The notes under the pieces: generated by a model
Databases searched by the model: none
What the model was told of the DNA's origin: nothing
Seen by the model: only the letters and a program-made list of their open reading frames with translations
IMG/VR virus record: IMGVR_UViG_3300030116_006045
Coordinates: 1 to 64,000 of that record
DNA length: 64,000 nucleotides
DNA from: an uncultured virus (IMG/VR IMGVR_UViG_3300030116_006045)
Lineage: Duplodnaviria > Heunggongvirae > Uroviricota > Caudoviricetes
Direction: 5' to 3' (one strand)
In this document: positions 10,190 to 51,321 of the stretch, piece by piece
How the letters are laid out: each line of letters opens with the position of its first letter
Numbering within the stretch: the stretch's first letter is position 1
Position numbers and translations under genes: made by a program

Positions 10190-10230
10190 AATGCTACTGG
10201 ATCGAGGTTTTGAACTTGAATGCTTGCCCT

Positions 10231-12915: not shown

Positions 12916-12934
12916 ACGAAATCATTCAAGTATA

Positions 12935-13117
12935 TCAACCCTGTTTATTTTTATCCTTATTTACACTAATATCGCGTGGCGGAGAGTAATCTCTATCAGC
13001 TACTCGAAATACGCCACAGTGCATATTGCCGTTGATTTTATGATTATTGTAACCACACACTCGCTTTATCCCACAATTAGAACAGACGCGCAAGCACTTT
13101 CGCGGCATCAAACCCAC
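12935..13117 (-). CDS. Small Cys-rich zinc-finger protein
   Basis: CSNCG...HCG; overlaps the MTase stop. Confidence 0.5.
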   Translation of the reverse strand: MGLMPRKCLRVCSNCGIKRVCGYNNHKINGNMHCGVFRVADRDYSPPRDISVNKDKNKQG

Positions 13118-14322
13118 TCCATATCTTCGATTTTTTCATTGACTTTGGATATAGAACGAATACGATCTGGAATAAACTCGGCGTATTCAGGATTAAGCTC
13201 GCACAGAATAGCTTCTCGACCATGAAGTAAGGCTACACCAGCTGTTGTCCCAGATCCACCGAACGGATCTAGGACTACTGAAGGAACGATAGGATGCTCA
13301 TCAAGAGGGAGATCACTATGATAGACCAACATTGTTCTAACCTTTTCTTTGGTGGCTGACTCAATCATCCTTCGTTTTACGTCGCTTGCGCCTTGAGCCA
13401 TAGCTGATTCGTAATCTTTCAAGTTAGATCCGCCGTAATTACCTTTTGAGTCAGCACCCCACCCAGTTTCAAGAAGTTCCTTTTGACTCATCTTAGGGGG
13501 TATAACCACTTCTTCTCTTACGAGCTTACCATGACACTCACAGTTAGGACGCCAGGTATCTAAGTTCTTGCCGGTGCTTGAAATGAACTGATCTGTACCA
13601 GCTCTGACCCAGGGTTCTCCGCAATCAGCACAGCATCCTTTAGCACTACTACCAGCTAACACGCATGGTTCTATCAGTTCCGGCGGATATACAGCAAAAT
13701 GCGCCTTTGGGAAGGATTGGGGGTTTATGTGCCAAACATCACGCTTATTCCTGTTGTTTTCACCTTCTTTGATAGCCTCATGATCGTAGAAGTAATGCTT
13801 GTTCTTAGTTAGCATAAAGATAAACTCATGCGATCTGGTGCATCTGTCTTTAACAGGCTCCGGCATACACTTCGGCTTCGCCCAAATAATATCCTGTCGA
13901 AGATACCATCCATCGGCTTGAAGTGCAAAAGCTACACGCCAGGGGATGCCAATGAGATCCTTCGGCTTGAAGTTATTACCTGTCTTACGCTTGAACGACT
14001 TGCCCCCATCCTCATGATAGTTATTGAGATGAGGTCGAAATCGTGAGTTTGTCTGATGACCTCCATTTGAACCGGCGTAAGAGTCGCCCAAGTTAAGCCA
14101 TAGAGTGCCTGTTGGTTTGAGGACACGCCACACTTCTTGAAATACTTGAACCATGTTTTCAATGAAAGCTTCGGGTGTTTCTTCTAACCCGATTTGATCG
14201 TCGTTTCCATAATCTCGAAGGCCGAAGTAAGGCGGTGATGTAACACAACAATCTACTGATTCATCAGGTAGCTCGGAGAGAGTTTCACGGCAGTCGCCTA
14301 AGAGGATCTTAACACCCTTCAT
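13108..14322 (-). CDS. Amino (N4-cytosine/N6-adenine) DNA methyltransferase, beta class
   Basis: TSPPY catalytic motif N-terminal and VLDPFGGSGTT SAM motif C-terminal; Cys-rich insert. SPPY suggests m4C. Confidence 0.9.
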   Translation of the reverse strand: MKGVKILLGDCRETLSELPDESVDCCVTSPPYFGLRDYGNDDQIGLEETPEAFIENMVQVFQEVWRVLKPTGTLWLNLGDSYAGSNGGHQTNSRFRPHLNNYHEDGGKSFKRKTGNNFKPKDLIGIPWRVAFALQADGWYLRQDIIWAKPKCMPEPVKDRCTRSHEFIFMLTKNKHYFYDHEAIKEGENNRNKRDVWHINPQSFPKAHFAVYPPELIEPCVLAGSSAKGCCADCGEPWVRAGTDQFISSTGKNLDTWRPNCECHGKLVREEVVIPPKMSQKELLETGWGADSKGNYGGSNLKDYESAMAQGASDVKRRMIESATKEKVRTMLVYHSDLPLDEHPIVPSVVLDPFGGSGTTAGVALLHGREAILCELNPEYAEFIPDRIRSISKVNEKIEDMEWV

Positions 14323-14465: not shown

Positions 14466-14482
14466 TATAACACGAAATGATC

Positions 14483-15847
14483 TCATAACCACTCAGCTAC
14501 TCCTTTCTTACCTATACCTTCAAACTCCAGATCCTCAACAGCCTGTATTCTTTCTCCAAGCCATCTCATAAGAGGCACAGCCATACTGTTACCCATAGCC
14601 TTGAAACGATGTCCATCTGGACAATCCTCTCTCGCCTTTCCTTTCCATTCAATTAGAGTATAGTTATCAGGAAATCCCTGGAGCCTTTCACACTCAATAG
14701 GTGTGAGGCGTCTAACTCTCATGGTAGATTCGATCATAGCTGTGTTTGTGCGTACATCACTCGCGGTCATATCGTGTGCTGTTAATGTACCAACGGCATC
14801 AGCTTCTCCCCAGGTTTCGTGATCGGTTTCCGATTGGGGTCTTCTTATTTTTCTAAATGGTATAGTTTCACCAGCTTGAGCTACAAACGGTTTCATACGA
14901 CTACCGGCTGACGCCATCAGACCCTTGACTTCTTCATTGAGAGAGATAACCTCATCTCGCTGATTAGCAAAGAACGACAGGACACGGGGTTCAGCCACAG
15001 CTGGTGAGGTCGGTACAGCTCCGTTAGCTTTCAACGTAGGAGCCACTTCTTCGTATATCCCATAGTTCTGTCCAAAAGTATGATCGAATGCGACCAGATC
15101 AGTGCCGTCTTTGTAATCCCTTGCTTTCAAAGTGCTAGCTGTCTCATCACAGGCGTAGTCACCAAAAGCACGTAATCTCGCACCTACTCCTTTTGCTGAG
15201 ACAAGTTCGCTTGATTGTCCAACGCCATTTGTAGTAGGTGGGGCAGTGTCTTGCCTCGACGGGACGCTCGGCGCAGAATCCCCCGACAAGCTCGTTCGCT
15301 CAAATAGTACCGCTGCGGGACGTCGCCAATCTCCAGAAGCGTGTCCGACAACAAACAAACGTCGGCGTCTTTGGGCCACTCCGAAGTAGCGAGCGTCCAA
15401 GATTCTCCAGGCGCAAGAATACCCGATCCGCTCCACTTCTGCGAGGAAGGTTCCAAAATCCCGTCCTTCGTCTGATGACAAGAGACCAGGGACGTTTTCA
15501 AAGAGAAACCACTCCGGTCGAATATCTCGAACAATGCCGAGATAGTGGAGGGCCAAGTTCCCACGCGGGTCATCCAATCCAAGTCGTTGTCCCGCGACTG
15601 AGAAGGATTGGCATGGTGATCCCCCGACGACGAGATCGAGCTGTCCGGCGTATTGTTTCCAGTCATGCTTAGTCACATCTCCCACATTCGGAACTGTCGG
15701 GTAGTGGTGAGCAAGGACTTCTGATGGAAACTCGTCGAACTCTGCGAAGATTTGAGGCTTCCAGCCGAGAGGTTCCCAAGCGACTGTTGCCGCTTCGACT
15801 CCGCTGAATAGGCTTGCGTATCGCACAAACAAACCCACTGGGACCAT
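14483..15847 (-). CDS. C5-cytosine DNA methyltransferase (probable start GTG at 15826)
   Basis: Motif I SLFSGVEA, IV GGSPCQSFS, VI ENVPG, VIII QRRRRLF, IX RRLTPIECERLQGFP and X MGNSMAVP. Confidence 0.93.
   Translation of the reverse strand: MVPVGLFVRYASLFSGVEAATVAWEPLGWKPQIFAEFDEFPSEVLAHHYPTVPNVGDVTKHDWKQYAGQLDLVVGGSPCQSFSVAGQRLGLDDPRGNLALHYLGIVRDIRPEWFLFENVPGLLSSDEGRDFGTFLAEVERIGYSCAWRILDARYFGVAQRRRRLFVVGHASGDWRRPAAVLFERTSLSGDSAPSVPSRQDTAPPTTNGVGQSSELVSAKGVGARLRAFGDYACDETASTLKARDYKDGTDLVAFDHTFGQNYGIYEEVAPTLKANGAVPTSPAVAEPRVLSFFANQRDEVISLNEEVKGLMASAGSRMKPFVAQAGETIPFRKIRRPQSETDHETWGEADAVGTLTAHDMTASDVRTNTAMIESTMRVRRLTPIECERLQGFPDNYTLIEWKGKAREDCPDGHRFKAMGNSMAVPLMRWLGERIQAVEDLEFEGIGKKGVAEWL
15184..15666 (-). 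CDS. Alternative-frame ORF nested in the C5-MTase (M.EcoHK31I beta-like polypeptide)
   Basis: 160-aa stop-free overlapping frame with an ATG start. Protein-like segment WSGSG...LSDTLLEIGDVPQRYYLSERACRGILRRA...LP recalls alt-frame beta subunits of two-component C5 MTases. Confidence 0.5.
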   Translation of the reverse strand: MTGNNTPDSSISSSGDHHANPSQSRDNDLDWMTRVGTWPSTISALFEIFDRSGFSLKTSLVSCHQTKDGILEPSSQKWSGSGILAPGESWTLATSEWPKDADVCLLSDTLLEIGDVPQRYYLSERACRGILRRASRRGKTLPHLLQMALDNQANLSQQKE

Positions 15848-15868
15848 CCATATAAATCATCTGTATAA

Positions 15869-17395
15869 TCAAAGCCACTCAGCCTCCGGTGGGAGTTCTA
15901 AGCTGGTTCCCATATCTGTTTCAACGAGATCAGCTTCGCTCCAATGGGCCATTCTTGCGGTAGCTATATCGGCATACTCTTGAGATATTTCACAGCCGAT
16001 AAAGTCGAATCCTTCAAGCAAAGCCGCAATACCTGTTGTTCCAGATCCTAAGAACGGATCGAGAATCTTACCTCCTGGTGGCGTTACTAACCTACACAAA
16101 TACCGCATCAGTGCGACAGGTTTCACAGTGGGGTGTATGTTCTTTCTAAGCTTATTACCTCGGTTACGTGGGTTATCTGAACCAACACCTGTCGTATCTT
16201 TTCTATCAGTAACTTGAGCTGATTCAAAATCTTCTAAACCAGCTTCTCTTTCTTTTCTTGAAGCCTTAGCACAATAAAAGAATCTTGCAGCTGACGTATC
16301 GACATCATCAAACCCTGGGTGTGCGCCCCCACCCATACCCTCTCCGTACACTTCGTTCTTATTGTTGGGTATGTATTCTTCGTGGTGCATATTCACAGCC
16401 GATGAGTGTTTGGTATCAGGGAACTCGTCTCGAACTTCATCACTACCATCATGGATCACATTCGCAGGGTATCTACCTGAAGGTGATCCTGTCTTTACAT
16501 TCAAAAAGAATCGAGATGCACCTCCTTGATCGTTAAACCCATGTGTTTCAGAACCTCCCTCCCCATGTATCTTACCTACCATCGTTAATTTCTCGCCTTC
16601 TTGCTTATTTTTTCGCACCGCATCACTACTTCTACTCGTACCACTTTGTTCATCAAGCATCTCACCAGCTTCTCCATCAAGAATAACATTAGCTGGAAAG
16701 CGACCATTTTCATGAGCTTCAGTTTCAGTTCCTTCTGATTCGCCCCAATGACCTTTCACTGATTTACGATTAGTATTCTTTGCATGATCCTCGCCCGCCT
16801 TTATTCTGCAATCGTCGATATTGATTGCGCCCGTATCATGTTTGAGGACATTGTTGGGTATATTATTTTCAGATATGGGCTTACGAGCTAACACGCATGG
16901 CTCATGAGCTGGTTTGAGAGCTGTTCCCCAACCTTCCCACTTCTTAGCGTCATCAGTAGCGGGTGCTGTAATCCTTGAGTCGTTACCTTTACCATTGAAA
17001 TCAATAGCACTGTTCTGTTCTCTATCGTTAGGGTTTGGGCCGAGATCTACTCTTTCAGCCCCTGCAGCTTTGTCTATTGCTTTTGATATATTGAGCGACT
17101 TAGGAAAACCAGATCCGTAAATCCACATAATTTGATCACGAATCTCAAAACCCGCATCTTCCACGTTGATAGCTAAACGATGATATGTTCGAGAACCAGC
17201 GAAAGCGATTAGATGACCACCAGGTTTGAGAACACGTAAGCACTGCGCCCAAAGCTCGCGTGAGGGAACATCGTAGTCCCATTTCTTACCCATAAAAGAA
17301 AGACCATACGGAGGATCTGTGACTATACTATCTACGCTGTTCTCTGGTAGCTCCTTAAGTCGCTCTAAAGAATCTCCAACCATTATCATAACCAT
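15869..17395 (-). CDS. Amino (probably N6-adenine) DNA methyltransferase, beta class
   Basis: TDPPY, HPTVKP and ILDPFLGSGTTG motifs; internal duplicated GR(F/Y)PANV...ASRFF segments. Confidence 0.9.
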   Translation of the reverse strand: MVMIMVGDSLERLKELPENSVDSIVTDPPYGLSFMGKKWDYDVPSRELWAQCLRVLKPGGHLIAFAGSRTYHRLAINVEDAGFEIRDQIMWIYGSGFPKSLNISKAIDKAAGAERVDLGPNPNDREQNSAIDFNGKGNDSRITAPATDDAKKWEGWGTALKPAHEPCVLARKPISENNIPNNVLKHDTGAINIDDCRIKAGEDHAKNTNRKSVKGHWGESEGTETEAHENGRFPANVILDGEAGEMLDEQSGTSRSSDAVRKNKQEGEKLTMVGKIHGEGGSETHGFNDQGGASRFFLNVKTGSPSGRYPANVIHDGSDEVRDEFPDTKHSSAVNMHHEEYIPNNKNEVYGEGMGGGAHPGFDDVDTSAARFFYCAKASRKEREAGLEDFESAQVTDRKDTTGVGSDNPRNRGNKLRKNIHPTVKPVALMRYLCRLVTPPGGKILDPFLGSGTTGIAALLEGFDFIGCEISQEYADIATARMAHWSEADLVETDMGTSLELPPEAEWL

Positions 17396-19614
17396 TGTGT
17401 ATCACTTACTCCGTTCATCGCATTTATTATTGGCTGCATCGACCATCCGACCACTGAATAAAGTGGCTCTACTTTTTTTACTACAAATCTTTCAACCATG
17501 ATACGCCATCCTATTTCGGCTATACCTTCTATTTCTTTGGGATCATCGAAAGCTATGTAGTCGCCTTGATTACTGATAGCTACCTTGAAGAAGTCGCCTT
17601 CTTTGTAGCCCTTACCGAGATGCCTGTTAGCCCAGGCTGCAGCCGCAGATGGACCGGATAGTGTTTCGTACTTGTCGAGATTCTTCTTGAGTTTGCCTTT
17701 CATCAGAACCTCACTTGGGTCCAGATCGCCACCCAATACATTCTCTATCAGCTGGCATAGCCTATCATCGACTAAGGACTGTTTCTCACCTTCAAGGATA
17801 GCATCAAGTGTAGTTTTCATAGATTTCTTCATTACGGGGGGCATACGTGCCTGTATAAGCTCGATACCCTTCACATACGTCTGTGGGTCATGGAACGCCC
17901 CATCTGTCCATAAAACGCGAGCAGCGTATCTATTCTTAGCATTGATGAAGAATGAATCGCACCACTTCTCGAACTCTACTACGATTGGGGCCATATCCTC
18001 GTTCAAGTCGGCACAAAGCTGGACACCGGCATCAGGTGTAGCCACATCAACCATAACAGAATCAGTGTGTCCATAGCGAACTTTATGGCCGCGAGCTTCG
18101 CATAGATCACGAAGAAGAAACAAAGTTTGTCTTGATGTAAAGGTGATTGCAGCTGCAATCTCAGGGTGATACAGACCATATCTACTGTCACCACATACAC
18201 CATACAGAGAAGCGACGAGAGTTTTGGTAGCGTGTTGCATAGCATCCCACCTGTGCTTGTTGTCAGGATCTGACTTCATCTTCGCCTTGTATTCATTACG
18301 AAGGTCAGTTAGTCGATCCATAGTGCGTACTAACAACCCCTTCTTCTCCTTACTGAATCGTGTTCCATTACCTATGTCGTCGCCATCTTCGCTAAGGGTG
18401 TCCCAGGATATATTGTGTAGTGCCGCGTTGCTATGATACATCGCCTTGATGTCCATAATACCGATGTGTCGATACACACCTGGTTCGGGTTCTTGAATAT
18501 CAGCACCTTCGTAGTCCACCTTATCGAACTGTGGTTTAGATGGGATTCTTTGTTTGAAATCGGGATCCCGTAAGAAAAGCTGAGTAGCCATCTTGGTAAT
18601 ATGAGGGGTGTCTCTGAAACGGATCTGGGTAAGGAACGACAGTGTAATGTAATGTTCGCTTACATTGAGATATTCGTCCAGCTTAGGCATCAGACGCACA
18701 TCTTGTCGATTGTAGTCCACATAGGTAGCAAAGTCAGTGTAGTAAGTATCGTGGCCGTCCGGTAGCTCCGTCTTGCGTTCTTTTAGTGCCTCCCACGCTA
18801 CATCGTCGAGCTTCTTTGAAGCAAGCTGACCATGCTTTAGCACCCACAGTTTCTCGAAACCAACCATAAGATCGAAGCAAAGACGACCAGGGATGGGTTG
18901 ATCCCAATCCCCATAGGAATAAACGTGTTTCTTGAGCGGCGATAGTGTTCTTGGATCTAGCCCAACCACCTTCATCCTCTTAGCTAACTGAGAAATATCA
19001 GCTCCTTGTAGATACCAACCAATCAACATATCTGGGTCACATCTACTCATATGATTTACGAAATGTTCGATCATGTCTCTTTCGTTATCGAAGGCTAATA
19101 AAACGGGGTACATCTCAATAAACTGATGACCTTCAGGGTGTTTCTTACAACCGAGTGACTCATGCTTCCCTGCAGGAAGTTCATCAGATATGGCCCATGT
19201 GAACATAGCTTCCTCGTAGGAATCCCATACTGATATGATAGTGATCTCACCACTCTCGGTTTTCCACTCCATATCAAGATACCACTTACGATACTGATAG
19301 TAAGGGAAGGGATTGACCCTATCAGCAAGAACACGATTCACCCAGGGTATGTTTGCTTCCCATGTCTGTACTTGTTTCTTAAGCTGGTGTGGCTCGTCGG
19401 TATCACCGAATGTGAGCTTTACCAGATCCTCACCATACACACCTTCGTAACCATCCCTTTTTCTTATGGCTTTGAAAGGCATTCGGGATAAGTCCTTTTT
19501 CTGTACGAAACAGTAAGGGTGATGATCGTTGATGTGTGTTTCTATTCTCGACAATGTGTCTGGGTTGCGATGGCGCACTATTACAGAACGTCCTCTTGTG
19601 CGGTCGGCAATCAT
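17386..19614 (-). CDS. polB: Family B DNA polymerase with 3'-5' exonuclease
   Basis: ExoI LDMEW, ExoIII YNRQD, and polymerase motifs DIKAMYHS, KTLVASLYG, YGHTDS and KNRY. Confidence 0.95.
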   Translation of the reverse strand: MIADRTRGRSVIVRHRNPDTLSRIETHINDHHPYCFVQKKDLSRMPFKAIRKRDGYEGVYGEDLVKLTFGDTDEPHQLKKQVQTWEANIPWVNRVLADRVNPFPYYQYRKWYLDMEWKTESGEITIISVWDSYEEAMFTWAISDELPAGKHESLGCKKHPEGHQFIEMYPVLLAFDNERDMIEHFVNHMSRCDPDMLIGWYLQGADISQLAKRMKVVGLDPRTLSPLKKHVYSYGDWDQPIPGRLCFDLMVGFEKLWVLKHGQLASKKLDDVAWEALKERKTELPDGHDTYYTDFATYVDYNRQDVRLMPKLDEYLNVSEHYITLSFLTQIRFRDTPHITKMATQLFLRDPDFKQRIPSKPQFDKVDYEGADIQEPEPGVYRHIGIMDIKAMYHSNAALHNISWDTLSEDGDDIGNGTRFSKEKKGLLVRTMDRLTDLRNEYKAKMKSDPDNKHRWDAMQHATKTLVASLYGVCGDSRYGLYHPEIAAAITFTSRQTLFLLRDLCEARGHKVRYGHTDSVMVDVATPDAGVQLCADLNEDMAPIVVEFEKWCDSFFINAKNRYAARVLWTDGAFHDPQTYVKGIELIQARMPPVMKKSMKTTLDAILEGEKQSLVDDRLCQLIENVLGGDLDPSEVLMKGKLKKNLDKYETLSGPSAAAAWANRHLGKGYKEGDFFKVAISNQGDYIAFDDPKEIEGIAEIGWRIMVERFVVKKVEPLYSVVGWSMQPIINAMNGVSDTQWL

Positions 19615-19617
19615 AAT

Positions 19618-19788
19618 TTACGCATTGTAAAGTTTGTTATAAGGATTGCTTCTATTCAAGAAACAACCCTTACACATTACGATTGGGAACTCATCACAGT
19701 CGATAACCACCAAAGCACCGAGGGGGATAGGGTCAAAGCAAATCTCACACGACCAGGAGCCATCAGAAATCTGCTTGTCAGTCGTCAC
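19618..19788 (-). CDS. 56-aa Cys-rich microprotein (not in ORF track)
   Basis: Hand translation from GTG: MTTDKQ...CEICFDP...MCKGCF...; fills the gap before polB. Confidence 0.5.
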   Translation of the reverse strand: MTTDKQISDGSWSCEICFDPIPLGALVVIDCDEFPIVMCKGCFLNRSNPYNKLYNA

Positions 19789-20101
19789 TTCTTCTGCCTC
19801 TCTTACGACGGGGGATATTGTGTTTATCCACCCAATACTGAATCGTCATAGCACTTACACCAAACACCAATGCAAGCTCGGCCATCGTTTTGTTCTTTGT
19901 AACATAATGCTCGAATAACCAAGCTGGTTCTTGATATCTAGGTTGATTCGGTTGTTCACCGAACTTAGCTAAAAGGAATACATCTGAGCCACATCTGTCA
20001 CAGTGCTGTACGATCCGTGACTCCTGTTCAGGGATCTCAAGCTGTTTTTCAAAGAAAACGTGCGCCCCACAGTTCGGACAAGCGACTCTCATCAGACCCA
20101 C
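19778..20101 (-). CDS. Zinc-ribbon plus HTH DNA-binding protein
   Basis: CPNCG/CDRCG followed by an HTH (TMAELALVFGVSAMTIQYWVDKHNIPRR). Confidence 0.75.
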   Translation of the reverse strand: MGLMRVACPNCGAHVFFEKQLEIPEQESRIVQHCDRCGSDVFLLAKFGEQPNQPRYQEPAWLFEHYVTKNKTMAELALVFGVSAMTIQYWVDKHNIPRRKRGRRSDD

Positions 20102-20270
20102 CTATACAGTATCTCTTTTATTAAAGAACGCCCTTTGGGTTCACGCTGGCTCAAGAGCCTTTTCACCACATCTGGGGCATATTCTCTTGATAGCTTTAGC
20201 GCGAAGCATACGCTGAGTAGCCCAACCACAGGCTCTACACCTTGCAGCTTCCCACTCAAGACCCAATGGA

Positions 20271-21074
20271 TCACCGTAACAACGAAGCCTGAAAGACCCA
20301 TCCAGATCCACCACAGTCGATTATCAAACGGACACCCTGTTCCTCAGCTCGGAAATCAATGAAATGCAAATCAACATTACCTGTCATTTCCTTGAGAACA
20401 GAATCCAACCCACCCTCGAACACTACTTCTATCACGGGGAAATCTGTTTCTTCGTTTTCCCACTCTGTTGTAGTGTGTCCTTTGAGTTCATCACCCACCG
20501 ATAGGGTGATTTTACCTTCGCCCAGGCTAAAGGTGTAGCGATTTAGCTTCTGTCCATTCATGGTATCGCAACGTAGGGCTTCAAACAGCTCCGTTGCATC
20601 TACTGTCCAAGACAGCATAGCCTCACGCTTATCTCCAGATCGTAGTGTGTACGACCCTTTGGGATCAATCTGTTCAGCCAGCTGAACACTCTTACCTTCC
20701 CACTCACCAATAGTATCAGTGCTATGTGGAAAGGCCAAACCACCGAGATCAGATAGTAGCGTCGTCTGTTTAGAGCCGGACTTGACTCGCAGCTTACTAC
20801 CATCCAGGGAGAGTGTAACACTCGATCCGTGAAACTTCAAGACACCTAACAACCGATCAATATCAGGAATGGGTATCTCCCCAGTTCCATGAGCGGGAAC
20901 TCGGAAGTGAGATAGGCTCGTCTTACCATCTCGCACCAAGCTCGTCGTAGTGCATGAGTCGTTCTCAAACCTTAGAATTGTAGCAAGCACCTGGTCTTGA
21001 GGCTTACCAGCTACAACCTGCGGTCGCTTAGTCAAATTAAGTAGTCGTTGTAACGATGCGTTATTTATGTTCAT
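20271..21074 (-). CDS. Putative DNA sliding clamp (PCNA-like)
   Basis: 267 aa with two repeats of the beta-alpha-beta-beta-beta clamp pattern; lies between polB and RPA/RFC genes. Confidence 0.65.
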   Translation of the reverse strand: MNINNASLQRLLNLTKRPQVVAGKPQDQVLATILRFENDSCTTTSLVRDGKTSLSHFRVPAHGTGEIPIPDIDRLLGVLKFHGSSVTLSLDGSKLRVKSGSKQTTLLSDLGGLAFPHSTDTIGEWEGKSVQLAEQIDPKGSYTLRSGDKREAMLSWTVDATELFEALRCDTMNGQKLNRYTFSLGEGKITLSVGDELKGHTTTEWENEETDFPVIEVVFEGGLDSVLKEMTGNVDLHFIDFRAEEQGVRLIIDCGGSGWVFQASLLR

Positions 21075-21078
21075 TTTT

Positions 21079-21267
21079 TCACCTGTTCTGTCTAATCTTA
21101 AGACAGGATTTACAATTTACGTGCGATCCATCATGGATCACAACATTATCATACAGACGGGCCAAGCCCCTGCAGTCGAGAATGTACACGGAACCGAAGC
21201 GTTTCACGCGATGCCTAACATCACTTGAGCCAAGTGAAGCCACCTGACACTTCGCTGGTAAGCTCAC
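21079..21267 (-). CDS. Small Cys/His-rich protein
   Basis: VNCKSC motif; coupled to neighbours. Confidence 0.45.
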   Translation of the reverse strand: MSLPAKCQVASLGSSDVRHRVKRFGSVYILDCRGLARLYDNVVIHDGSHVNCKSCLKIRQNR

Positions 21268-21488
21268 CCACTCACCTCAAACTCAGCGACGTTATCACGC
21301 TTGGCGACATAACGAATAATAGATTCAAACTGGGCCTGAAGCTGACAGACATCCATCATTTCCTTAGATAGTAGCTCCATTTCACCCTCGAATGTGGCGA
21401 CGGAATCTTCCAGATCCTTTACGGTTTTAGTTAGGGCCTCAAGCATCTGTGTTAGTGAGTCGATTAGATCTAATGTAGCATCTCCCAC
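21264..21488 (-). CDS. Small coiled-coil protein
   Basis: Heptad repeats. Confidence 0.5.
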   Translation of the reverse strand: MGDATLDLIDSLTQMLEALTKTVKDLEDSVATFEGEMELLSKEMMDVCQLQAQFESIIRYVAKRDNVAEFEVSG

Positions 21489-21492
21489 GTGA

Positions 21493-22467
21493 TCACCATC
21501 GTAGTTCAGGTAGCCCTTTGAAGTCCACTTTACCGTTCTTAACAGATAGAATAACTCGATCTTGACCTACCAAATCCATACCCTTACCCTTGATTTCTTC
21601 GATGCGAGCTTTGATGACCCACTCATCGGCATCCAGGGAGCTGTCGGCATACACACCAGCTGAACTGTCGCCCTTCTTCTGATAGCGACCCATGAAAAGC
21701 TGTTGGCTTACAATACGCTGTGTACCATCAACCCAATCAGGGCGTTCGCCAACCTTCATCAGACCCTTAGACCCGTTTCCTAGATCCGCGTATTGTTTAT
21801 CGTCTTTGAGATGGAATGTGAAATACACCTTATCCACAGGTAGCCCGTGAAGTCGTGTGATAGTGTCTCTGAATAGCTGGTTCCTGGTGCGCCACTCCTT
21901 CTGATTGAAAGAGTCGCCTTCTTCCTTGATCACACCGCGAGATAGTAAAACATCAGTCATGGCGAACTCACACCACTTCATGTAAGTAGAACCACCATCG
22001 AAGATTACAGCTGCGTAATCATCAGGGTTAGCTGTTATTTCCTCAGCCATTAGATTCACGAAGATTCTCGTCTTATCGATCAAAGCTTTCCAATTGACAC
22101 TCATATCTTCATGGAAGATAGAATCGTCTGTCTCATCGAATATGTTTAGAATCATGATATTGGGATCATCTCCGTACACATGAAACACGGTCTGAGAAGC
22201 ACTGTTGTCGAAGTCGAAGATGATTACCTTACGACCCTTCTCAATGTCGTCGTCGTTGCGAGCTAAGTGTAGAGCAAGACCCGTCTTGAGTGTGTTTTCA
22301 CGACCAACAAGAGCCATACGTTGCTGTGGCTTTGCCGTGTGCTTCTTCTCGAATAGTCCACGATAGTAATCAATACCATAGCTGGTAGATACCTCTTCGC
22401 CTTTGGTCTGTCCAGATCCTGCAGCCTTGCCGCCGGAACCCCCCCAGGGCGAACTCAAGCGTCCCAC
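21493..22467 (-). CDS. RecA-like/Sak4-like (AAA_24) ATPase, recombination protein
   Basis: Degenerate Walker A GRENTLKT, IIFDFD, and Walker B AVIFDG; adjacent to RPA. Confidence 0.7.
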   Translation of the reverse strand: MGRLSSPWGGSGGKAAGSGQTKGEEVSTSYGIDYYRGLFEKKHTAKPQQRMALVGRENTLKTGLALHLARNDDDIEKGRKVIIFDFDNSASQTVFHVYGDDPNIMILNIFDETDDSIFHEDMSVNWKALIDKTRIFVNLMAEEITANPDDYAAVIFDGGSTYMKWCEFAMTDVLLSRGVIKEEGDSFNQKEWRTRNQLFRDTITRLHGLPVDKVYFTFHLKDDKQYADLGNGSKGLMKVGERPDWVDGTQRIVSQQLFMGRYQKKGDSSAGVYADSSLDADEWVIKARIEEIKGKGMDLVGQDRVILSVKNGKVDFKGLPELRW

Positions 22468-23687
22468 CCACCATTGTCTCCATCAGAGGTAGGGAGATCG
22501 GAAGCGATAGCATCACAGATGAACCAACCTGTGCAGTCCAAACGAGGCTCGTTGTCCCGACTCATCCAAGCGCGACCTACAAGAGCTATTTCGGAACCAA
22601 CGCCGAAATTGATCAGGTCTTCTTGTTCACCTGGAACATACACATCAACAGCTGGTGCGGTAGATGTAATGTCGAGATCACCGACAGTAATGATGTAGCC
22701 GCCCTTCTCACGCGGATCAATGTGTACAACCTCACCATGAACAGCACACAGCTTATCCCAACGCTCATCGGTATCAGCCCACTTAGCGATATGCTCAGGA
22801 AGCAAATCGAAAGAAGGCAAGAAATCACCGTCAGGCCATGTGCCATCAACGAGCTTCGGAATCAAACCAGCAGGGCCGTTCTCACCAATAACGAGTGGAG
22901 ATACAGCAAAGATAGAAGCAACAGCATCGTCAGCTGTGAACTTAGTAACACCAACCTTACCATAACCCACACCGTTACGACCCATACGAACAGGGATGCG
23001 ACCAGGCACGAAGGTAGGATAGATTGTCTCCGCCAAATCACCCTCGGTCTTGACGGTGATTAGCTGAACATCATCATCACCATTCTTGCGTCCGAGGAAT
23101 AAAGATTCACGGCTTGGTTCAGACAAACGGCGAGCGCGACCGAAACGAGGATTGGGATCTCCCGAAGGATAGACAGGTGTTGTGTTGTTCTCGATGATCT
23201 GGAACCATGTAGTATCGTCCAGCTGTTCACAGAACTTAGGGAGTTCACTGATAGTAAGTTCAGCGTTGTCCTCAGAAAAAGCCCCTGTCTTGAAAGATGG
23301 ATTAACAGTATGAGTGTAAGATCCATCGAGATTGTCTTGAATCAAAGTGATACGACCCTGGGACACCAAAGCAACACGCGCATCATCCGATAGTGGTGTA
23401 AGAGTGTCTTTCATCTTCCTGTAAGCGAGCTTTGCCCAATCTTTGTAACGTGGAACACTTACGAACATACCTTCAAGGATTTCAGCACCGGAGCGCGAAA
23501 GCTTCTGAGCCTCGGCCTTAAGCTGGCGTCCGGCTACTCTTATTGCGAGTACGTCGCATTCGTCTTTCGTCTTACCGGAAGCTACCCACGCATTCTGATT
23601 TTCCGCGAGGACTGCATCCACGCGATCTTTCAGCTGGTCGGTCGAGATTCCTATGTTCTTTGCTACTGTGTTCATTAGGTCGGTCAT
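22455..23687 (-). CDS. Single-stranded DNA-binding protein (RPA-like, OB folds)
   Basis: C-terminal OB fold (VHGEVVHID...ITVGD...VGSEIALVG) and an acidic tail; next to the recombinase-like ATPase. Confidence 0.65.
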   Translation of the reverse strand: MTDLMNTVAKNIGISTDQLKDRVDAVLAENQNAWVASGKTKDECDVLAIRVAGRQLKAEAQKLSRSGAEILEGMFVSVPRYKDWAKLAYRKMKDTLTPLSDDARVALVSQGRITLIQDNLDGSYTHTVNPSFKTGAFSEDNAELTISELPKFCEQLDDTTWFQIIENNTTPVYPSGDPNPRFGRARRLSEPSRESLFLGRKNGDDDVQLITVKTEGDLAETIYPTFVPGRIPVRMGRNGVGYGKVGVTKFTADDAVASIFAVSPLVIGENGPAGLIPKLVDGTWPDGDFLPSFDLLPEHIAKWADTDERWDKLCAVHGEVVHIDPREKGGYIITVGDLDITSTAPAVDVYVPGEQEDLINFGVGSEIALVGRAWMSRDNEPRLDCTGWFICDAIASDLPTSDGDNGGWDA

Positions 23688-23744
23688 TGTTGATACCCAT
23701 CTGTCGCACAGACCACACCCATATAAGTGTTCTGATAAAACAAA

Positions 23745-24017
23745 TCAAGGCGTATATGACGGCGATTCGTCGCCCCCTTCTATCTGTCCGTGTAGCAAAG
23801 CATGAGCCATTGAGCTGTCGTATGCGACAGAACCAGGACCGCAACACACCCACTCACATTCATCACAAGCAGCTATGATCACCATCTCATTGAATAGGGT
23901 AACACCAGGCAACCTAAGAATAGGTATGCACTCACCAGGTAGCCACTCATTCCCTTCAGGATCAATATAAGACATAGCAAAGGTTTCTTCCTCGAACATC
24001 AAATCAATTATATCCAT
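23745..24017 (-). CDS. Hypothetical Zn-binding protein
   Basis: CDEC...H..H; similar to 34563-34859 (YIDP.G..W....IP.L.L..GT..NE.VI...C..C). Confidence 0.55.
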   Translation of the reverse strand: MDIIDLMFEEETFAMSYIDPEGNEWLPGECIPILRLPGVTLFNEMVIIAACDECEWVCCGPGSVAYDSSMAHALLHGQIEGGDESPSYTP

Positions 24018-24796
24018 TTGACTCTTGATTCTTTTTCCGACTTGAGTAATTTATGTCGTTGCGCCCACTCGATAGCATAAGTCATACAATTATTACACGC
24101 TAAGGGGGGATCTTCTCTTTTTTCACATAACGAGCATTTTTTCCCCGTTTTATGTGCTAGATATCGGGCTTCTACACTCCATGCAAATGAATCGGCACTG
24201 TGAAGGAATCTACCGTACTTATCTAACCCACGAATCTTTACCCCAAAACCATGCAGCTTCAGTCCCTTTCGATAGAACCTTTCTACAATATCAGCTATTT
24301 CATCTTTCGATTGTCTCCTACAAACCGAACCCAACCCTACCAGATCCTCCTTTACTAAATCCACACCAGCTTTAGCATACATATCAAAACAATTCTCGTA
24401 ATCCTCCAAAGACCAACCTTGAAGAACAGGGATAAATGGGAGATCAGGAGCTGTTGAACGCAAGTAAAGAAAATTATCTACTGTTCGACGTTGATGTTCT
24501 TCGACGGATAAACCGGTCTTTTCTATGATCCAGGGTTCAACCATCCAATCTTGAGGTGCAGCCCACTGAAGACCACCCCATGACTGATACCGCCTAACAG
24601 ATTCTATGTACGAATCAGCATCTATTGTCCATGTGCCATGTAAGTTCAGCTCGGTGAAACCGCCTGAATCCAAAGCCCATGTGCTTATTGCGTTACGTTC
24701 TTTCTTTGTGGTCATCAAGGTTCGATGACTAATGAATAAAGGATGCTTTGTTCTTTCAAGCCAAACAGCTTTGTGGCATCCAATGAAAAACCGCAT
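24008..24796 (-). CDS. dpdA: DpdA-like (TGT-fold) deazaguanine DNA transglycosylase
   Basis: TGT-family motifs ALDSGGF, APQDWM.EP, IPVLQGW, VGLGSVC, LHGFGVK and SADSFAW; C-terminal Cys cluster. Confidence 0.75.
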   Translation of the reverse strand: MRFFIGCHKAVWLERTKHPLFISHRTLMTTKKERNAISTWALDSGGFTELNLHGTWTIDADSYIESVRRYQSWGGLQWAAPQDWMVEPWIIEKTGLSVEEHQRRTVDNFLYLRSTAPDLPFIPVLQGWSLEDYENCFDMYAKAGVDLVKEDLVGLGSVCRRQSKDEIADIVERFYRKGLKLHGFGVKIRGLDKYGRFLHSADSFAWSVEARYLAHKTGKKCSLCEKREDPPLACNNCMTYAIEWAQRHKLLKSEKESRVKWI

Positions 24797-24797
24797 A

Positions 24798-25415
24798 CTA
24801 TCGATCTCCTAAGTGATATACTTCTTCTCGAATTAGCTTCATTCGTTTTCTTTTTTCAGAAGGACTACCCAAAATAAAAATAAAACGATGTTTTGATTCT
24901 CTCCTTACAGGTTTCCAACCAAACGATCTAGCTTGCTCCTTTGTGATATTTTCACCACACTGTCGAGGATGTCTTAAACGAACACCGTCATAATAGAACG
25001 TGGTTTTAGAGGTCATGCCGGAATAAATAGCATTTGAAGCGCGATAGATCGTCCCATTGTGACCTTCGGTCGAATCCGCATAACTGACCAACCCCCAAAT
25101 ATCCGGTCTTACAACACGACACAATTTGAAACATCTTGAAATAAACCACGATTCCGTATTCTTAGGTGTGTCGTCGATCAACACTAAACGATGTAGTTCT
25201 TTTACGTGATCCTTAAGCTCAGGTCCGAAGATATATGAGCGTACGGCTTCTGAACCAGGAGTAGCTATTAGCATAGCACCAATCAACCTCCCATCATCGT
25301 AAAGACCGAAGCATGGGTTAGGGCTTCTCATCGCTCCGTGTGAGTAATGATGCTTAATTACGAACTCTTTACCAACCTTAGCTGAAATATGCCTTACTTC
25401 GTAGGTTTCTTTCAT
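24798..25415 (-). CDS. mom: Mom-family (GNAT-fold) adenine-modification enzyme
   Basis: Motifs FVIKHHYS, FGLY..GRLIG, ELHRL...PKNTESWFIS and VSYAD..GH.GTIYRASN.IY.G are characteristic of phage Mu Mom relatives. Confidence 0.8.
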   Translation of the reverse strand: MKETYEVRHISAKVGKEFVIKHHYSHGAMRSPNPCFGLYDDGRLIGAMLIATPGSEAVRSYIFGPELKDHVKELHRLVLIDDTPKNTESWFISRCFKLCRVVRPDIWGLVSYADSTEGHNGTIYRASNAIYSGMTSKTTFYYDGVRLRHPRQCGENITKEQARSFGWKPVRRESKHRFIFILGSPSEKRKRMKLIREEVYHLGDR

Positions 25416-25416
25416 G

Positions 25417-26325
25417 CTACTGACCTTTCAATAATCTACAAAAGTTCCATGTCACGATCTGGGAATCAACACCATCAATGAGATCCCTTTCAGATTGAAT
25501 CGCTGCGTCAATCACACGTAACTTAGATTTCGATCCGGCTGGTGTATTTACAGCGTAAGCAAACACAGCATGAATACGCTCGCGTACAACCCCACCGTTT
25601 TTCATCAGTTCATCAATAGCATCCTCGATAGCTCCTTCGGTGAAGGCCAGCTTGAGAACGCGCTCAGGTGAGAAGTCAGGGGCTTCAAGCCCATGAATAA
25701 AACGACGACGTTCATTCTCACCCAAATGAGCTGCTGTCTGCAAAGCACCGATAGCATTCCGTAGATCACCTTTGTGCTTACCGGCTATTACTCGAATAGC
25801 GTGGTCGTCCACTTCAACACCTTCCAACGCCGCAATCTTAGCCAAGCGAATCTCAGCGATTTCAGCTGGGATAGGTTTGAATGTGCGTAAGGCGCATCGT
25901 GATTGAATCCAGGGAGATACCCTGGAGAGATCATTACAAGTTAGTATGAAGTAACCTTGAGCATCCTCGATAACACCTTTCAAGGCATCCTGAGCTTGAG
26001 GCGTTAATCGATCTGCCTCGTCGAGAAGAAACATAGTTTCCCATATTCCTATTCGAGACATAGGAGCTACGTCCTCTTCTATGAACTCAATACCTCTCTG
26101 TCTCTTCGATGAAGCATTGAACTTATGCAATTGTAGATTCAGCTTTTCAGCTAATATGTACGCGAGAGTCGTCTTACCTGTGCCTGGTTCGGGCGAGTAG
26201 AACAGATAGTGTTGCATCGGGGCATCACCCTCGATGATTGAACGGAACTCTTCGATGATTCCGTCCTGTCCGACAACATCATCCAGATCCGTTGGCCTGT
26301 GCTTTTCCCACCAAATCTCCTTCAT
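25417..26325 (-). CDS. rfcS: Replication factor C small subunit (clamp loader)
   Basis: WWEKHRP..LDDVVGQ, PGTGKTT, FNASSKR.RGI, LLDEADRLT..AQDAL, IQSRC and GDLRNAI. Start reset to the MKEIWWEK ATG at 26325. Confidence 0.93.
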   Translation of the reverse strand: MKEIWWEKHRPTDLDDVVGQDGIIEEFRSIIEGDAPMQHYLFYSPEPGTGKTTLAYILAEKLNLQLHKFNASSKRQRGIEFIEEDVAPMSRIGIWETMFLLDEADRLTPQAQDALKGVIEDAQGYFILTCNDLSRVSPWIQSRCALRTFKPIPAEIAEIRLAKIAALEGVEVDDHAIRVIAGKHKGDLRNAIGALQTAAHLGENERRRFIHGLEAPDFSPERVLKLAFTEGAIEDAIDELMKNGGVVRERIHAVFAYAVNTPAGSKSKLRVIDAAIQSERDLIDGVDSQIVTWNFCRLLKGQ

Positions 26326-26329
26326 CGAA

Positions 26330-26584
26330 TCAATCCCTATCGTAATAAATAGAACGACGCATAGCTCGTTGGTCGTCTGCTTCAGCACAACATTCCCAAC
26401 AGATACGGTCATCATTTAGTTCACTTCTGTAATCTGAATACTCTTCACAAATGCGGCACTTCAACCAGGCACAGTCGAGGCAAGAAGGACCGCCGGTTAG
26501 CGGATTAACAGCTTGATCACAATCAGGATGAGCGCAGACATAATCTTCGGCTGAATAGCCATGTTCGCATTCACTCATCTTCAT
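26330..26584 (-). CDS. Cys-rich hypothetical protein
   Basis: Multiple CxxC pairs. Confidence 0.55.
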   Translation of the reverse strand: MKMSECEHGYSAEDYVCAHPDCDQAVNPLTGGPSCLDCAWLKCRICEEYSDYRSELNDDRICWECCAEADDQRAMRRSIYYDRD

Positions 26585-26879
26585 CAGCTGGCCTTTGTGC
26601 TTCTTCTACCATTAGTTCCTGGAACTCTTTGTTTTCTTTTTCTATCATCTTCACGACGTCCAGGCAATTATCCATCTTCCTGTAAAGCAGCCAAGCCTGA
26701 TCCTTCAATTCCTTGATGCTTTCCAGATCCATAGTGATTAGCTGAACAGTAGGCAAGTTCATGCAATTCGATAGTGTCGGTTTATATCCCATACTCAGAC
26801 CCCCATGTAGTATTCTTCCCAACGAAGCTGGCTGATGTAAGCGTGTGTGTCGGCTTCCATCTGATTGTTGTATTGGCAA
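26571..26879 (-). CDS. Hypothetical coiled-coil protein (true start probably at MGYKP)
   Basis: Operon packing and heptads. Confidence 0.45.
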   Translation of the reverse strand: MPIQQSDGSRHTRLHQPASLGRILHGGLSMGYKPTLSNCMNLPTVQLITMDLESIKELKDQAWLLYRKMDNCLDVVKMIEKENKEFQELMVEEAQRPADEDE

Positions 26880-27124
26880 GGCTCACACATATCATCAATC
26901 TCTAACTTCATCATCCCTCGGACACGCTCAATCGTCTGAGCTGTCTTACTGGTAATCGGCTGGCGGTCATCACCAATGGGTAGTTCACAATCTACGCATC
27001 GGATAGTCGGTCTTGTAATGAAACGAATTACACTTCGCTTCTTGGTTGTCGGTCGGAGTCCCATAAATAAAGGTAGGGAAGTTCCCTTATTTATACCCTT
27101 ACATTGTTCTAATTCCGCGTTCAC
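26795..27124 (-). CDS. Hypothetical Zn-finger protein (start uncertain)
   Basis: CVDC...CEPC. Confidence 0.45.
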   Translation of the reverse strand: MNAELEQCKGINKGTSLPLFMGLRPTTKKRSVIRFITRPTIRCVDCELPIGDDRQPITSKTAQTIERVRGMMKLEIDDMCEPCQYNNQMEADTHAYISQLRWEEYYMGV

Positions 27125-27503
27125 AGAATAAACAGTGATCTATTTCAGGTGGGATTAAACGACGCATACCACACGCTGTACACTGAGTCATTTTCCTACA
27201 TACAGATTTAGGTTGATGAGCTGCAGGTGTTGTAAAGTAAATGTCTCCTTCTCCCAGGATGAGATTTCTATTTACATCATAGAGGGTTTGCTGTTCCCAT
27301 CCTCGATGAGTTTGCACTTTTGTTTTACCGACATCCTCGAATTGTTTGGATCTGGAAAGTAAAGAAACGATGCGAGTGTGGGAAGCTTGGTTTCTAGGGT
27401 TGGCTGTTTGAAGACGATCCCGTAATTGATCGACAGTCATGGGTCCATTAACAAAAAGTTCCTTTATGGCTGCTTGCCTAACTCTTGTATTGTGGCTGCC
27501 CAC
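27099..27503 (-). CDS. Winged-HTH protein with C-terminal Zn ribbon
   Basis: GPMTVDQLRDRL...IVSLLSRSKQFEDVG and CTAC/CLFC; TTGA box exactly 31 nt upstream of the GTG. Confidence 0.65.
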   Translation of the reverse strand: MGSHNTRVRQAAIKELFVNGPMTVDQLRDRLQTANPRNQASHTRIVSLLSRSKQFEDVGKTKVQTHRGWEQQTLYDVNRNLILGEGDIYFTTPAAHQPKSVCRKMTQCTACGMRRLIPPEIDHCLFCERGIRTM

Positions 27504-27545
27504 GCCAAGTGATCGTGTGCAGTAGATAAATCAAGGTTCGTCCTT

Positions 27546-28220
27546 TTACAACCATTCAGTTAGGGATTCTTTACGCTTCTTTACCCCCTTCGGCAACCCT
27601 CCTGGGTCCACTGATCTCAAATGATTAGCCACATCAGGAGCTAATCGAATTAGTTCTTCGGTGTAATAATCAGATCGACGGAAACCATGTGGTTGTTCAT
27701 CGTTATCTTTGTCCAGCTTACCTCTAACTGGTCTTTCAGGGCTGGACTTTACAGAAAATGCAAAGATAGCGTGAATGAAATCATCCGAAAGCTGGAAGGA
27801 CGATTTAGCTATGCGACGAGCTGTTTCTATGTCGTCGGGGCGATTCATTCTCCATATCGACAGTGAAAGCGGAATCGGCAATTTAGCGATTTCATTGTGC
27901 GCCCTGTTTCGATCATCCCACCGGAGAAGTGCTTCTATCGGTCGTCTAAAATCCTCACCGCCACGCGGTAAGCTCCGGTGTTCAATTACCAGATCGCGTG
28001 ACTTATCTGTAAGCTTAGGTGCTTTCTTGAGGATTACAACCAAACGATATGATACGATAGGCGACCATTCTATGATGTCCTTTTCTGTGAACTTAGATGT
28101 ATGTAAGATGTATGTTGTCTTAGGTGCTGTCGGGGGGCTGGTCAGCTGACTGTGCATAACTATGTAATCACCCTGTCGAAACTCAGAATCGTCGCCAGCT
28201 AAAATTATCACACCCATCAA
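27546..28220 (-). CDS. Hypothetical protein, possibly a degenerate clamp-loader (RFC-L-like) subunit
   Basis: Near rfcS; ends in a basic stretch plus PIP-like KESLTEWL; no Walker A. Confidence 0.4.
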   Translation of the reverse strand: MMGVIILAGDDSEFRQGDYIVMHSQLTSPPTAPKTTYILHTSKFTEKDIIEWSPIVSYRLVVILKKAPKLTDKSRDLVIEHRSLPRGGEDFRRPIEALLRWDDRNRAHNEIAKLPIPLSLSIWRMNRPDDIETARRIAKSSFQLSDDFIHAIFAFSVKSSPERPVRGKLDKDNDEQPHGFRRSDYYTEELIRLAPDVANHLRSVDPGGLPKGVKKRKESLTEWL

Positions 28221-28489
28221 TTAGCCTCCCAGGGGTTGTTCTCGTAAATGTAAGCCATGATTCTTCGGAATTGGTGATCCGTAAAACCCCACGCTTCCCG
28301 AACGACTCTTGCTTTGACTCGGTAGCGACCGGAATACCACTCGACACCACTTGATAGTATGAAACAGGATAGGTCATCTTCGCGCATCATTTCGATAAGG
28401 CCAGGTATTTCATCAGCTCGAATAGGTCGAGTTACTACCATACTGTCGTGTGGTCGCCACTTCATACGCTCAGGCTTCATCCTTATCAC
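28217..28489 (-). CDS. Hypothetical protein
   Basis: Coupled ORF in the operon. Confidence 0.5.
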   Translation of the reverse strand: MIRMKPERMKWRPHDSMVVTRPIRADEIPGLIEMMREDDLSCFILSSGVEWYSGRYRVKARVVREAWGFTDHQFRRIMAYIYENNPWEAN

Positions 28490-28799
28490 CCTTCTTTGGC
28501 TTCCATCTTTTACCAGTTGCGTTCATAACCAGCTCATCATAATTGAATCCTGGTGCGATTGTCCAAACGGTAGGAAAACGGATGCCCCTACCACCTTCCT
28601 CATATTTACTGAAAATGTGAGGGGTCTTGTTTAGTATGTTAGCCAACGCTTGCTTAGTCGGTACATACCGATACCTATTATCGATCATATGTCCTATGAT
28701 CTGGTTTGTCGTGCATGGTCCGTATTTCATTAGTATTCTAACAGCTTGAAGTCGCTTCTTAGCTCCTTTGCCGACTGTCTTGTGTATTGTGTGTTTCAT
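28470..28799 (-). CDS. Winged-HTH protein
   Basis: GPCTTNQII...PTKQALANILNKTPHIFSK. Confidence 0.6.
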   Translation of the reverse strand: MKHTIHKTVGKGAKKRLQAVRILMKYGPCTTNQIIGHMIDNRYRYVPTKQALANILNKTPHIFSKYEEGGRGIRFPTVWTIAPGFNYDELVMNATGKRWKPKKGDKDEA

Positions 28800-29008
28800 T
28801 CATTCACCCCTGTATCAAAGTCAGGATATTGATCACCATCAATTAGGCAAGCATTACACACAACCAAACTGGGAAGGATATAGATTCTCATTGTTTTGGT
28901 ATCGCCACATACATTACAATGCCCTGGAAACGAAGGATGATTTAGATTAGCCATGTTCATTTTTGGACTAAGCCGATTACGAAAGTATGGGGGGTAATAC
29001 TCATTCAT
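28796..29008 (-). CDS. Small Zn-finger protein
   Basis: CNVCG...CNAC. Confidence 0.55.
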   Translation of the reverse strand: MNEYYPPYFRNRLSPKMNMANLNHPSFPGHCNVCGDTKTMRIYILPSLVVCNACLIDGDQYPDFDTGVNE

Positions 29009-45011: not shown

Positions 45012-45058
45012 GCCGTTCCCTAAACCGTCCCACTACCCTGCCACTTAAGAAGAATCGG

Positions 45059-51317: not shown

Positions 51318-51321
51318 TACT

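Follow-up and report, generated by a model that had tools for sequence, protein, structure and literature searches.

In a 64,000-nucleotide stretch of DNA from an uncultured tailed virus (called the window below; 64,000 of the 64,951 bases of IMG/VR record IMGVR_UViG_3300030116_006045, CheckV completeness 100%), a gene for a DpdA-family DNA guanine transglycosylase of the 'singleton' type directly follows a gene for a Mom-family GNAT protein, a putative aminoacyl-tRNA-dependent DNA adenine modifier. We conclude that the two are probably independent anti-restriction DNA modifiers whose genes were acquired separately and entered one accessory slot one after the other. DpdA would swap guanines in replicated viral DNA for a 7-deazaguanine, most likely preQ0 that is host-made or imported, and Mom would attach to N6 of adenine in double-stranded DNA an aminoacyl group taken from a charged tRNA of the host, as Mu Mom does with glycine from Gly-tRNAGly. 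The shared strand, the 1-nt spacers and the Shine-Dalgarno-like sequences suggest that both genes are transcribed with the replication genes, so that viral DNA would be marked while it is being made, and three methyltransferases may contribute up to three more marks. Family membership, fold, the catalytic residues that are kept, the missing biosynthesis genes and the way the slot changed through the lineage are observations reported here; from them we infer the actual substrates, the adducts and a purpose in evading restriction.

The slot between the clamp-loader gene and the 410-residue gene

A long minus-strand operon of replication genes holds an RFC-like (replication factor C-like) clamp-loader gene (25417..26415), the Mom gene (24798..25415, 205 amino acids) and the DpdA gene (24008..24796, 262 amino acids). 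A single nucleotide separates the RFC-like gene from the Mom ATG, and the Mom stop codon, TAG, is followed by one base and then the DpdA ATG. An earlier note on this DNA had described a TGT-fold (tRNA-guanine transglycosylase-fold) gene and a Mom-family gene lying 1 nt apart, and the coordinates of the open reading frames (ORFs), Pfam (PF23859 and PF25680) and PHROG (phrog_1279 and phrog_1384) confirm that arrangement. The same note had placed the pair between rfcS and RPA. The first half of this description stood: the best NCBIfam match of the RFC-like protein is the archaeal RFC small subunit model NF001679 (E 9e-47, 159.7 bits, short of the 303-bit cut-off), and the protein also matches the clamp-loader family phrog_168. 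The RPA label was not confirmed: a small conserved ORF of 90 amino acids (23745..24017, minus strand), overlapping the 3' end of DpdA by 10 nt, intervenes, and the conserved 410-residue protein beyond it (22455..23687, minus strand) had no Pfam, PHROG or NCBIfam match. For this larger protein the protein atlas offered sub-threshold OB-fold (tRNA_anti-codon-like) structural leads; Pfam and PHROG scans gave no family for the 90-residue ORF. The Pfam scans of the window took in 84 ORFs, each 60 amino acids or longer (7 + 77).

Relatives found through DpdA (L002-L006) have replication genes that are 40-74% identical to those of the window and in the same order. In these relatives DpdA comes directly after RFC, whose stop codon abuts or overlaps the DpdA ATG, and a complete DpdA-bearing relative (63,749 bp) has no Mom gene anywhere. 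Because these first relatives had been ascertained through DpdA, we repeated the search through RFC, which gave 16 relative loci (L211-L225 among their labels). Five of them read RFC, DpdA, small ORF and 410-residue gene. Three others, at an RFC identity (63-67%) similar to that of the DpdA-bearing five, pass from RFC to the small ORF and then to the 410-residue gene. In the remaining eight, which are more distant (RFC 50-61%), the 410-residue gene begins about 70-90 nt after RFC. The 410-residue gene on the far side was kept in all 16, and Mom was found in none of them. Homologues of the 90-residue ORF, 30-43% identical, occupy the same slot in the five loci with DpdA and in the three without it, and five long relatives whose slot is free of DpdA, including three complete ones of 61-65 kb, carry neither DpdA nor Mom anywhere.

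Because the contents of the junction differ across relatives and Mom occurs in none, the interval between RFC, whose 3' end forms its border, and the 410-residue gene is a variable accessory slot. The simplest history suggested by these comparisons is that the small ORF was gained, then DpdA in one sub-lineage, and Mom later in the window virus alone. The locus thereby shows a stepwise stacking of DNA-modification genes, from an empty junction to the small ORF, to DpdA and to DpdA plus Mom. GC content at third codon positions (GC3) is 0.357 in DpdA and 0.350 in Mom, compared with 0.444 and 0.448 in the flanking genes and a genome mean of 0.431 (standard deviation, sd, 0.066), a weak signal toward acquisition. 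By tblastn, DpdA matched 408 phage isolate records, of which 399 are Mycobacterium phages (about 48% identity), with no Halorubrum virus among the matches. The nearest Mom homologues (48-55% identity) lie in unrelated phages, often beside methyltransferases, and these phages show bacterial hallmarks: CW_7 and CHAP lysin domains, a bacterial SSB, ERF, PolA and the mycobacteriophage protein GP88. Since relatives of both proteins sit in bacterial phages, both genes look like widely travelling anti-restriction cargo.

We then asked how often the two genes occur together, searching DpdA and Mom loci by tblastn and again with local hidden Markov models (HMMs). Around the 80 best DpdA loci from IMG/VR, a Mom gene lay within ±6 kb in two (L058 and L069), at distances of 3.6 and 1.1 kb and never adjacent. 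Both of these loci carry a C5 methyltransferase, a Mom-type gene and DpdA within a few kb; L058 has a YhhQ-type transporter gene as well, and the record of L069 carries QueC. Seen from the other side, DpdA was found in none of 43 Mom loci by tblastn or in the HMM repeat, and it was likewise absent from another 80 Mom loci that came from a profile-based scan (±8 kb, 789 kb in total, with five contigs shared with the first set). The test on whole records covered 50 of the 80 DpdA records, with 21 contigs under 16 kb and nine look-alike records of 58-62 kb excluded. A Mom-family match was present in three of the 50 (two over cut-off) and in one of the 27 that are at least 90% complete, and DpdA was present in none of the 43 Mom records, just five of which are at least 90% complete. 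Together with the 16 RFC-found relatives, none of which has both genes, these counts do not bear out the co-occurrence across viral genomes by which the earlier note had proposed to judge the pair.

The two enzymes and the supply of precursor

Profile and fold searches both assign the 24008..24796 protein to the DpdA family. PF23859 matched at E 4.4e-74 and 249.5 bits (cut-off 27), over profile positions 4-249 of 291, and phrog_1279 at E 5e-80; PF23859 was the only family returned at E<=0.01, with no match to PF20314 (DUF6610, DpdA4). A six-frame search of the record with the DpdA model led to the same place as the ORF. The AlphaFold2 (AF2) model, built with 33 clade sequences, had a predicted local distance difference test score (pLDDT) of 93.9 and a predicted template modelling score (pTM) of 0.89, and Foldseek aligned it with the Z. 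mobilis TGT (E 3e-7), bDpdA (7ui4, E 1.3e-6) and ArcTGT (1iq8) at a probability of 1.00 and TMq of 0.56-0.64. The earlier note had held that its proposal would fail if the catalytic Asp residues were missing. Three active-site Asp residues are present, namely D43 (in LDSGGF), D83 (in QDW) and D202 (in SADS), and all are invariant in the 33 clade members, as is a hydrophobic base-stacking Phe.

In bDpdA, D95 is assigned as the general acid/base, F99 stacks the base, D130 binds it and D256 is the assigned nucleophile, and the D95A substitution abolishes guanine exchange (PMC10164549). By motif order and fold mapping, window D43-x3-F47 mirrors D95-x3-F99 of bDpdA, with D83 and D202 following in order; the Asp residues were mapped by motif and fold only because searches of PDB sequences, with the DpdA protein and with the 33-sequence profile, returned no relative. 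TGTs bind zinc at a C-terminal site. Near its C terminus the window protein has C221, C224, C234 and C237 (CxxC...CxxC), and most clade members have C...H-x2-C-x2-C. Judged by sequence and fold, then, DpdA looks intact, and insertion of preQ0 or another 7-deazaguanine into DNA is predicted.

By sequence and by model, the 24798..25415 protein is a sound Mom-family member. PF25680 matched at E 1.1e-34 and 120.3 bits (cut-off 27.1) and phrog_1384 at E 2.7e-49, and phmmer aligned the window protein with Mu Mom (8bv8) at E 6e-11. Foldseek placed the two Mu Mom chains first for the AF2 model (pLDDT 90.9; 8bv8_B/A, E 3e-14, TMq 0.72-0.75), nine orders of magnitude ahead of other GNATs (about 1e-5), with an identity of about 23-25% in the fold alignment. 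For both proteins, therefore, the family matches lie above cut-off and the folds are of the expected type, in agreement with the assignments made in the earlier note.

Silva et al. 2026 (PMC13219725) show that Mu Mom takes glycine from Gly-tRNAGly and attaches it to adenine N6 in double-stranded DNA. Its residues R111 and S124, picked from the structure and from conservation across metagenomic homologues, are essential (PMC13219725), and the active-site list of that article comprises H58, Y59, D149, R151 and Y159, with no in vivo activity detected for the R151A variant (PMC13219725, section 13). Window residues H23, Y24, R76, S89, D114 and Y124 correspond to Mu H58, Y59, R111, S124, D149 and Y159 at a constant offset of 35 and are invariant in 21 homologues; the 8bv8 crystal is of an S124A mutant, and its Ala lies opposite S89. 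An insertion at about residues 140-175 aligns with the helix-turn-helix-like insertion of 8bv8 (Mu about 175-209, needed for activity) and is of similar length; in the AF2 model it forms one short helix and beta hairpins (pLDDT 78-84). As a separate observation, an unrelated phage contig (L082:5221-9687, record G004) holds three Mom paralogues in a row, two strong and one weak, followed by two N6/N4 methyltransferases.

The earlier note had recognised no preQ0 biosynthesis genes in this genome, and wider searches gave the same result. No preQ0-pathway family was found among the 84 scanned ORFs, and when all six frames of the complete 64,951-bp record were searched for QueC, FolE, QueD/PTPS, radical SAM and QueF, nothing came up at E<=1, with control genomes matched. 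Nor was a YhhQ/Vut_1-family gene found in the window ORFs scanned by Pfam. Lacking these genes, the virus depends on an outside source for any 7-deazaguanine. In Hutinet et al. 2019 the phages that encode DpdA but no precursor pathway form the largest class, with 76 members, and preQ0 made by the host or imported was proposed as their supply (PMC6884629); an outside precursor was likewise proposed for the lone DpdA of HRTV-29, a tailed virus of archaea (PMC8651126). When a phage dpdA was expressed by itself in E. coli, dPreQ0 appeared in plasmid DNA (PMC6884629).

Comparison within the DpdA clade of the window adds support for precursor salvage. QueC was found in three of 50 clade records. A gene of the YhhQ/Vut_1 family, the preQ0-transporter family, was found in 12 of them, 11 over cut-off (G007, G009, G011-G014, G017, G026, G032, G040, G041 and G049; the loci include L058, L036, L015 and L017). 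In all four cases compared, the YhhQ-family gene adjoins DpdA (L058 by Pfam scan; G011, G013 and G026 by coordinates), and the two neighbours look like a two-gene salvage module. Co-occurrence of a YhhQ-type gene with this clade fits the salvage of precursor by singleton DpdAs.

Points against this interpretation and rival readings

Several points weigh against two intact enzymes that act independently on host-supplied substrates. The correspondence of the Asp residues with those of bDpdA comes from motif order and fold and stops short of a residue-level superposition. The occurrence of Mom near two of 80 DpdA loci probably exceeds chance, as a loose clustering in modification islands, and the 1-nt spacing of Mom and DpdA would suit a functional pair too. 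At the position of Mu R151 the window protein has T116, in a column that varies across the 21 homologues, and at that of Mu R154 it has H119, which is invariant in them; given these two residues, the chemistry may differ from that of Mu Mom, the exact donor and product are not readable from Mu, and this Mom branch may have a different pocket. Host supply of both preQ0 and a usable charged tRNA is an assumption. Lastly, the DNA of mycobacteriophage Orion, whose host is without preQ0, contained no detectable 7-deazaguanine and that of Salmonella phage 7-11 only about 0.02% dADG (PMC6884629), and substantial DNA modification is not known for any member of the singleton-DpdA clade.

The Orion result is one reason for supposing that singleton DpdA uses another base, or is inactive without an unusual precursor, which would make guanine modification doubtful. 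The window protein and Orion gp20 share 46% identity (E 3e-76), the functional divergence of singleton DpdAs was left to further work by PMC6884629, and the C221/C224/C234/C237 pattern is unlike the common cysteine and histidine pattern of the clade. We nevertheless regard this reading as unlikely. A negative result for Orion is what the salvage model foresees, because M. smegmatis is without the preQ0 pathway. Invariance of the three active-site Asp residues and the base-stacking Phe in 33 clade members also argues against a change of base or loss of activity, as does the presence of a YhhQ-family gene in 12 of 50 clade records and beside DpdA in the four compared.

We also think it unlikely, if worth keeping in view, that the Mom-like enzyme makes an adduct unlike that of Mu, with another aminoacyl-tRNA, acyl donor or target base, and does so independently of DpdA. 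Such a difference would accord with T116 in the variable R151 column, with the invariant His at R154, with K13 at the Mu dimer residue W48 and with an identity to Mu Mom of just about 23-25%. The three tandem paralogues of L082 are a further hint of diversified specificities. Set against this, the equivalents of the essential R111 and S124 are kept, and the metagenome-mined Mom homologues that were tested are described as active (PMC13219725).

The preferred reading of two independent modifiers has Mom relying on a charged tRNA of the host and DpdA on preQ0 from the host, which is why the domain of the host matters. On balance we lean toward archaea. Along its whole length the RFC-like protein scores far better with the archaeal RFC small-subunit model than with DnaX (160 versus 96 bits); an ERCC4 nuclease that carries an HhH domain at its C terminus (ORF 9315-10031, minus strand) has as its best NCBIfam match the nuclease end of archaeal Hef (E 1e-18, far below cut-off); the isolates nearest to PolB are haloarchaeal tailed viruses (about 24% identity); and the general Pfam scans of the 84 ORFs recognised no peptidoglycan lysin. 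Neutral or contrary to this are TerL, whose nearest isolates are T4-like cyanophages and a pelagiphage (about 24%), RFC, which is about 31% identical to halovirus and bacterial phage clamp loaders alike, and the nearest DpdA and Mom relatives, which are in bacterial phages.

Regulatory signals and wider searches were less informative about the host. Sigma-70-like promoter matches fell below those in shuffled sequence, a depletion that would favour an archaeal host (20 versus 33.1, sd 5.5, at 9001-29000; 15 versus 29.8, sd 5.2, at 44001-63600), and terminator-like sites in the two regions were not clearly enriched (22 versus 14.9, sd 3.6; 12 versus 14.9); these counts do not settle the host domain. 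Shine-Dalgarno-like 4-mers precede 43 of 80 ORFs compared with 16.5% of random sites, which is compatible with bacteria and with many archaea. Inspection of the intergenic regions by eye gave no obvious shared motif, the window encodes no tRNA, and scans of genome contigs with TerL alone and with an RFC alignment confirmed no relative. The proposal of the earlier note that the virus could mark G, A and C and draw preQ0 from the pathway of its host survives in part: the enzymes look intact and an outside source of precursor is required, but the archaeal-host premise is plausible rather than proven.

A more far-reaching version would have an archaeal virus hypermodifying two bases without a biosynthetic gene of its own, drawing on two RNA-related pools of the host: preQ0 of the archaeosine pathway by way of the singleton DpdA, and charged archaeal tRNA by way of an altered-pocket Mom whose adduct would be other than 6-NcmdA. 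We treat this as a long shot. If true, an archaeal virus would for the first time be seen to have Mom-type DNA modification, possibly with a new base.

The earlier note had further suggested that the two enzymes act together on one base, with DpdA inserting a 7-deazaguanine and the Mom-like GNAT acylating the inserted base to give a new one. Adjacency, the 1-nt spacer and a common operon would suit such a pathway; the other two viruses with both genes (L058 and L069) have them 1-4 kb apart in modification islands, the Mom branch departs from Mu at R151 and R154, and enzymes that act on DNA-borne dPreQ1, predicted or validated, include the DpdN formyltransferase and a dPreQ1 methyltransferase (PMC10516641). 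The comparative evidence, however, makes the suggestion highly improbable. The pair is not conserved, with DpdA absent from both sets of Mom loci and from the 43 Mom records, and Mom is missing from all 16 RFC-found relatives, which have DpdA alone (five loci) or neither gene. The chemistry is no more favourable: preQ0 bears a nitrile and not an amine, there is no QueF to make preQ1 with its acylatable aminomethyl group, and the Mu substrate-contact residues H58, Y59, R111, S124, D149 and Y159 are all kept. A joint DpdA-Mom product is thus unsupported, and the locus opens no new pathway.

Action of the TGT-fold protein on tRNA, in queuosine or archaeosine synthesis, is barely credible: the fold, the bacterial tRNA TGTs at the top of the Foldseek matches and the GenBank label 'queuine tRNA-ribosyltransferase' on phage homologues recall such enzymes, but the DpdA model matched at E 4e-74 with no other Pfam family at E<=0.01, the 262-residue protein is far shorter than the matched TGT (352-382 residues) and ArcTGT (577 residues) chains, and a CAjan dpdA deletion mutant lost phage DNA modification (PMC6884629).

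Known systems and other genes of the window

The closest precedents for the DpdA half of the locus are the singleton-DpdA phages, such as Mycobacterium phage Orion (gp20) and Salmonella phage 7-11 (the 'third group' of PMC6884629), which likewise have DpdA without a preQ0/G+ biosynthesis gene and for which an outside precursor was proposed. The window differs from them in its archaeal-type replication module (an RFC small-subunit-like protein and a Hef/XPF-like nuclease) and in having DpdA directly after Mom. HRTV-29 is also a singleton, but the window DpdA is not close to the HRTV-29 protein. With DpdA4 (DUF6610, PF20314) of HVTV-1, from a subfamily called archaeal-virus-specific (PMC10516641), the window shares a DNA transglycosylase amid archaeal-type genes; the window protein, however, belongs to PF23859, and HVTV-1 has the whole preQ0 pathway and a QueF-like gene. 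The DpdA of the S. Montevideo Dpd system (7ui4, PMC10164549) is alike in its TGT fold and, by motif, in its trio of active-site Asp residues. It is only about 10% identical to the window protein, its partners DpdB (a ParB-like ATPase) and DpdC were not found among the 84 ORFs scanned, and the window gene is viral and offensive rather than part of a restriction-modification island.

For the Mom half, Mu Mom (8bv8) shares the Mom Pfam family, is the best structural match and has the six kept residues listed above. The window protein departs from it in the replacements of R151 by T116, R154 by H119 and W48 by K13 and in its low identity (about 23-25%). The setting differs too, as the window gene is without regulation of the com/Dam-OxyR type and lies inside a replication operon with 1-nt spacers. 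The modification islands of L058 and L069 bring a C5 methyltransferase, Mom and DpdA together, as the window does, but the last two are adjacent only in the window.

Within the text covered, supplementary tables being outside its scope, the DpdA literature (PMC10516641, PMC6884629 and PMC8651126) has no mention of Mom, and the Mom study (PMC13219725) mentions neither deazaguanine nor archaea. Literature searches combining 'deazaguanine' with 'Mom-like', or DpdA with Mom, returned nothing relevant within the same scope, and a search combining DpdA with archaeal lineages returned no paper with DpdA. The direct adjacency of DpdA and Mom is new as an arrangement; a virus that stacks independent DNA-modification enzymes with a host-fed singleton DpdA is already known. 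The locus adds a Mom-family gene and a singleton DpdA of bacterial-phage type to a lineage with archaeal-looking replication genes.

Elsewhere on the minus strand, a family B DNA polymerase (17386..19614; PF00136 and PF03104) is followed by the three methyltransferases that the earlier note had listed after polB as SPPY, C5 and DPPY types, and Pfam and motifs corroborate all three. They are an N6/N4 DNA methyltransferase with DPPY at residue 27 (15869..17395; PF01555 E 2.6e-33, phrog_67), a C5 cytosine DNA methyltransferase with PCQ at 78 and ENV at 117 (14483..15847; PF00145 E 1.1e-56, TIGR00675 E 2.7e-55) and a second N6/N4 DNA methyltransferase with SPPY at residue 29 (13108..14322; PF01555 E 9.4e-44). 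Homologues of the SPPY-type enzyme lie at differing places in the relatives L218, L220, L224 and L225. On the plus strand, a giant ORF of 2,783 amino acids (977-9328) was matched by neither Pfam nor PHROG. Near the end of the window, positions 63606-63615 are 10 consecutive N.

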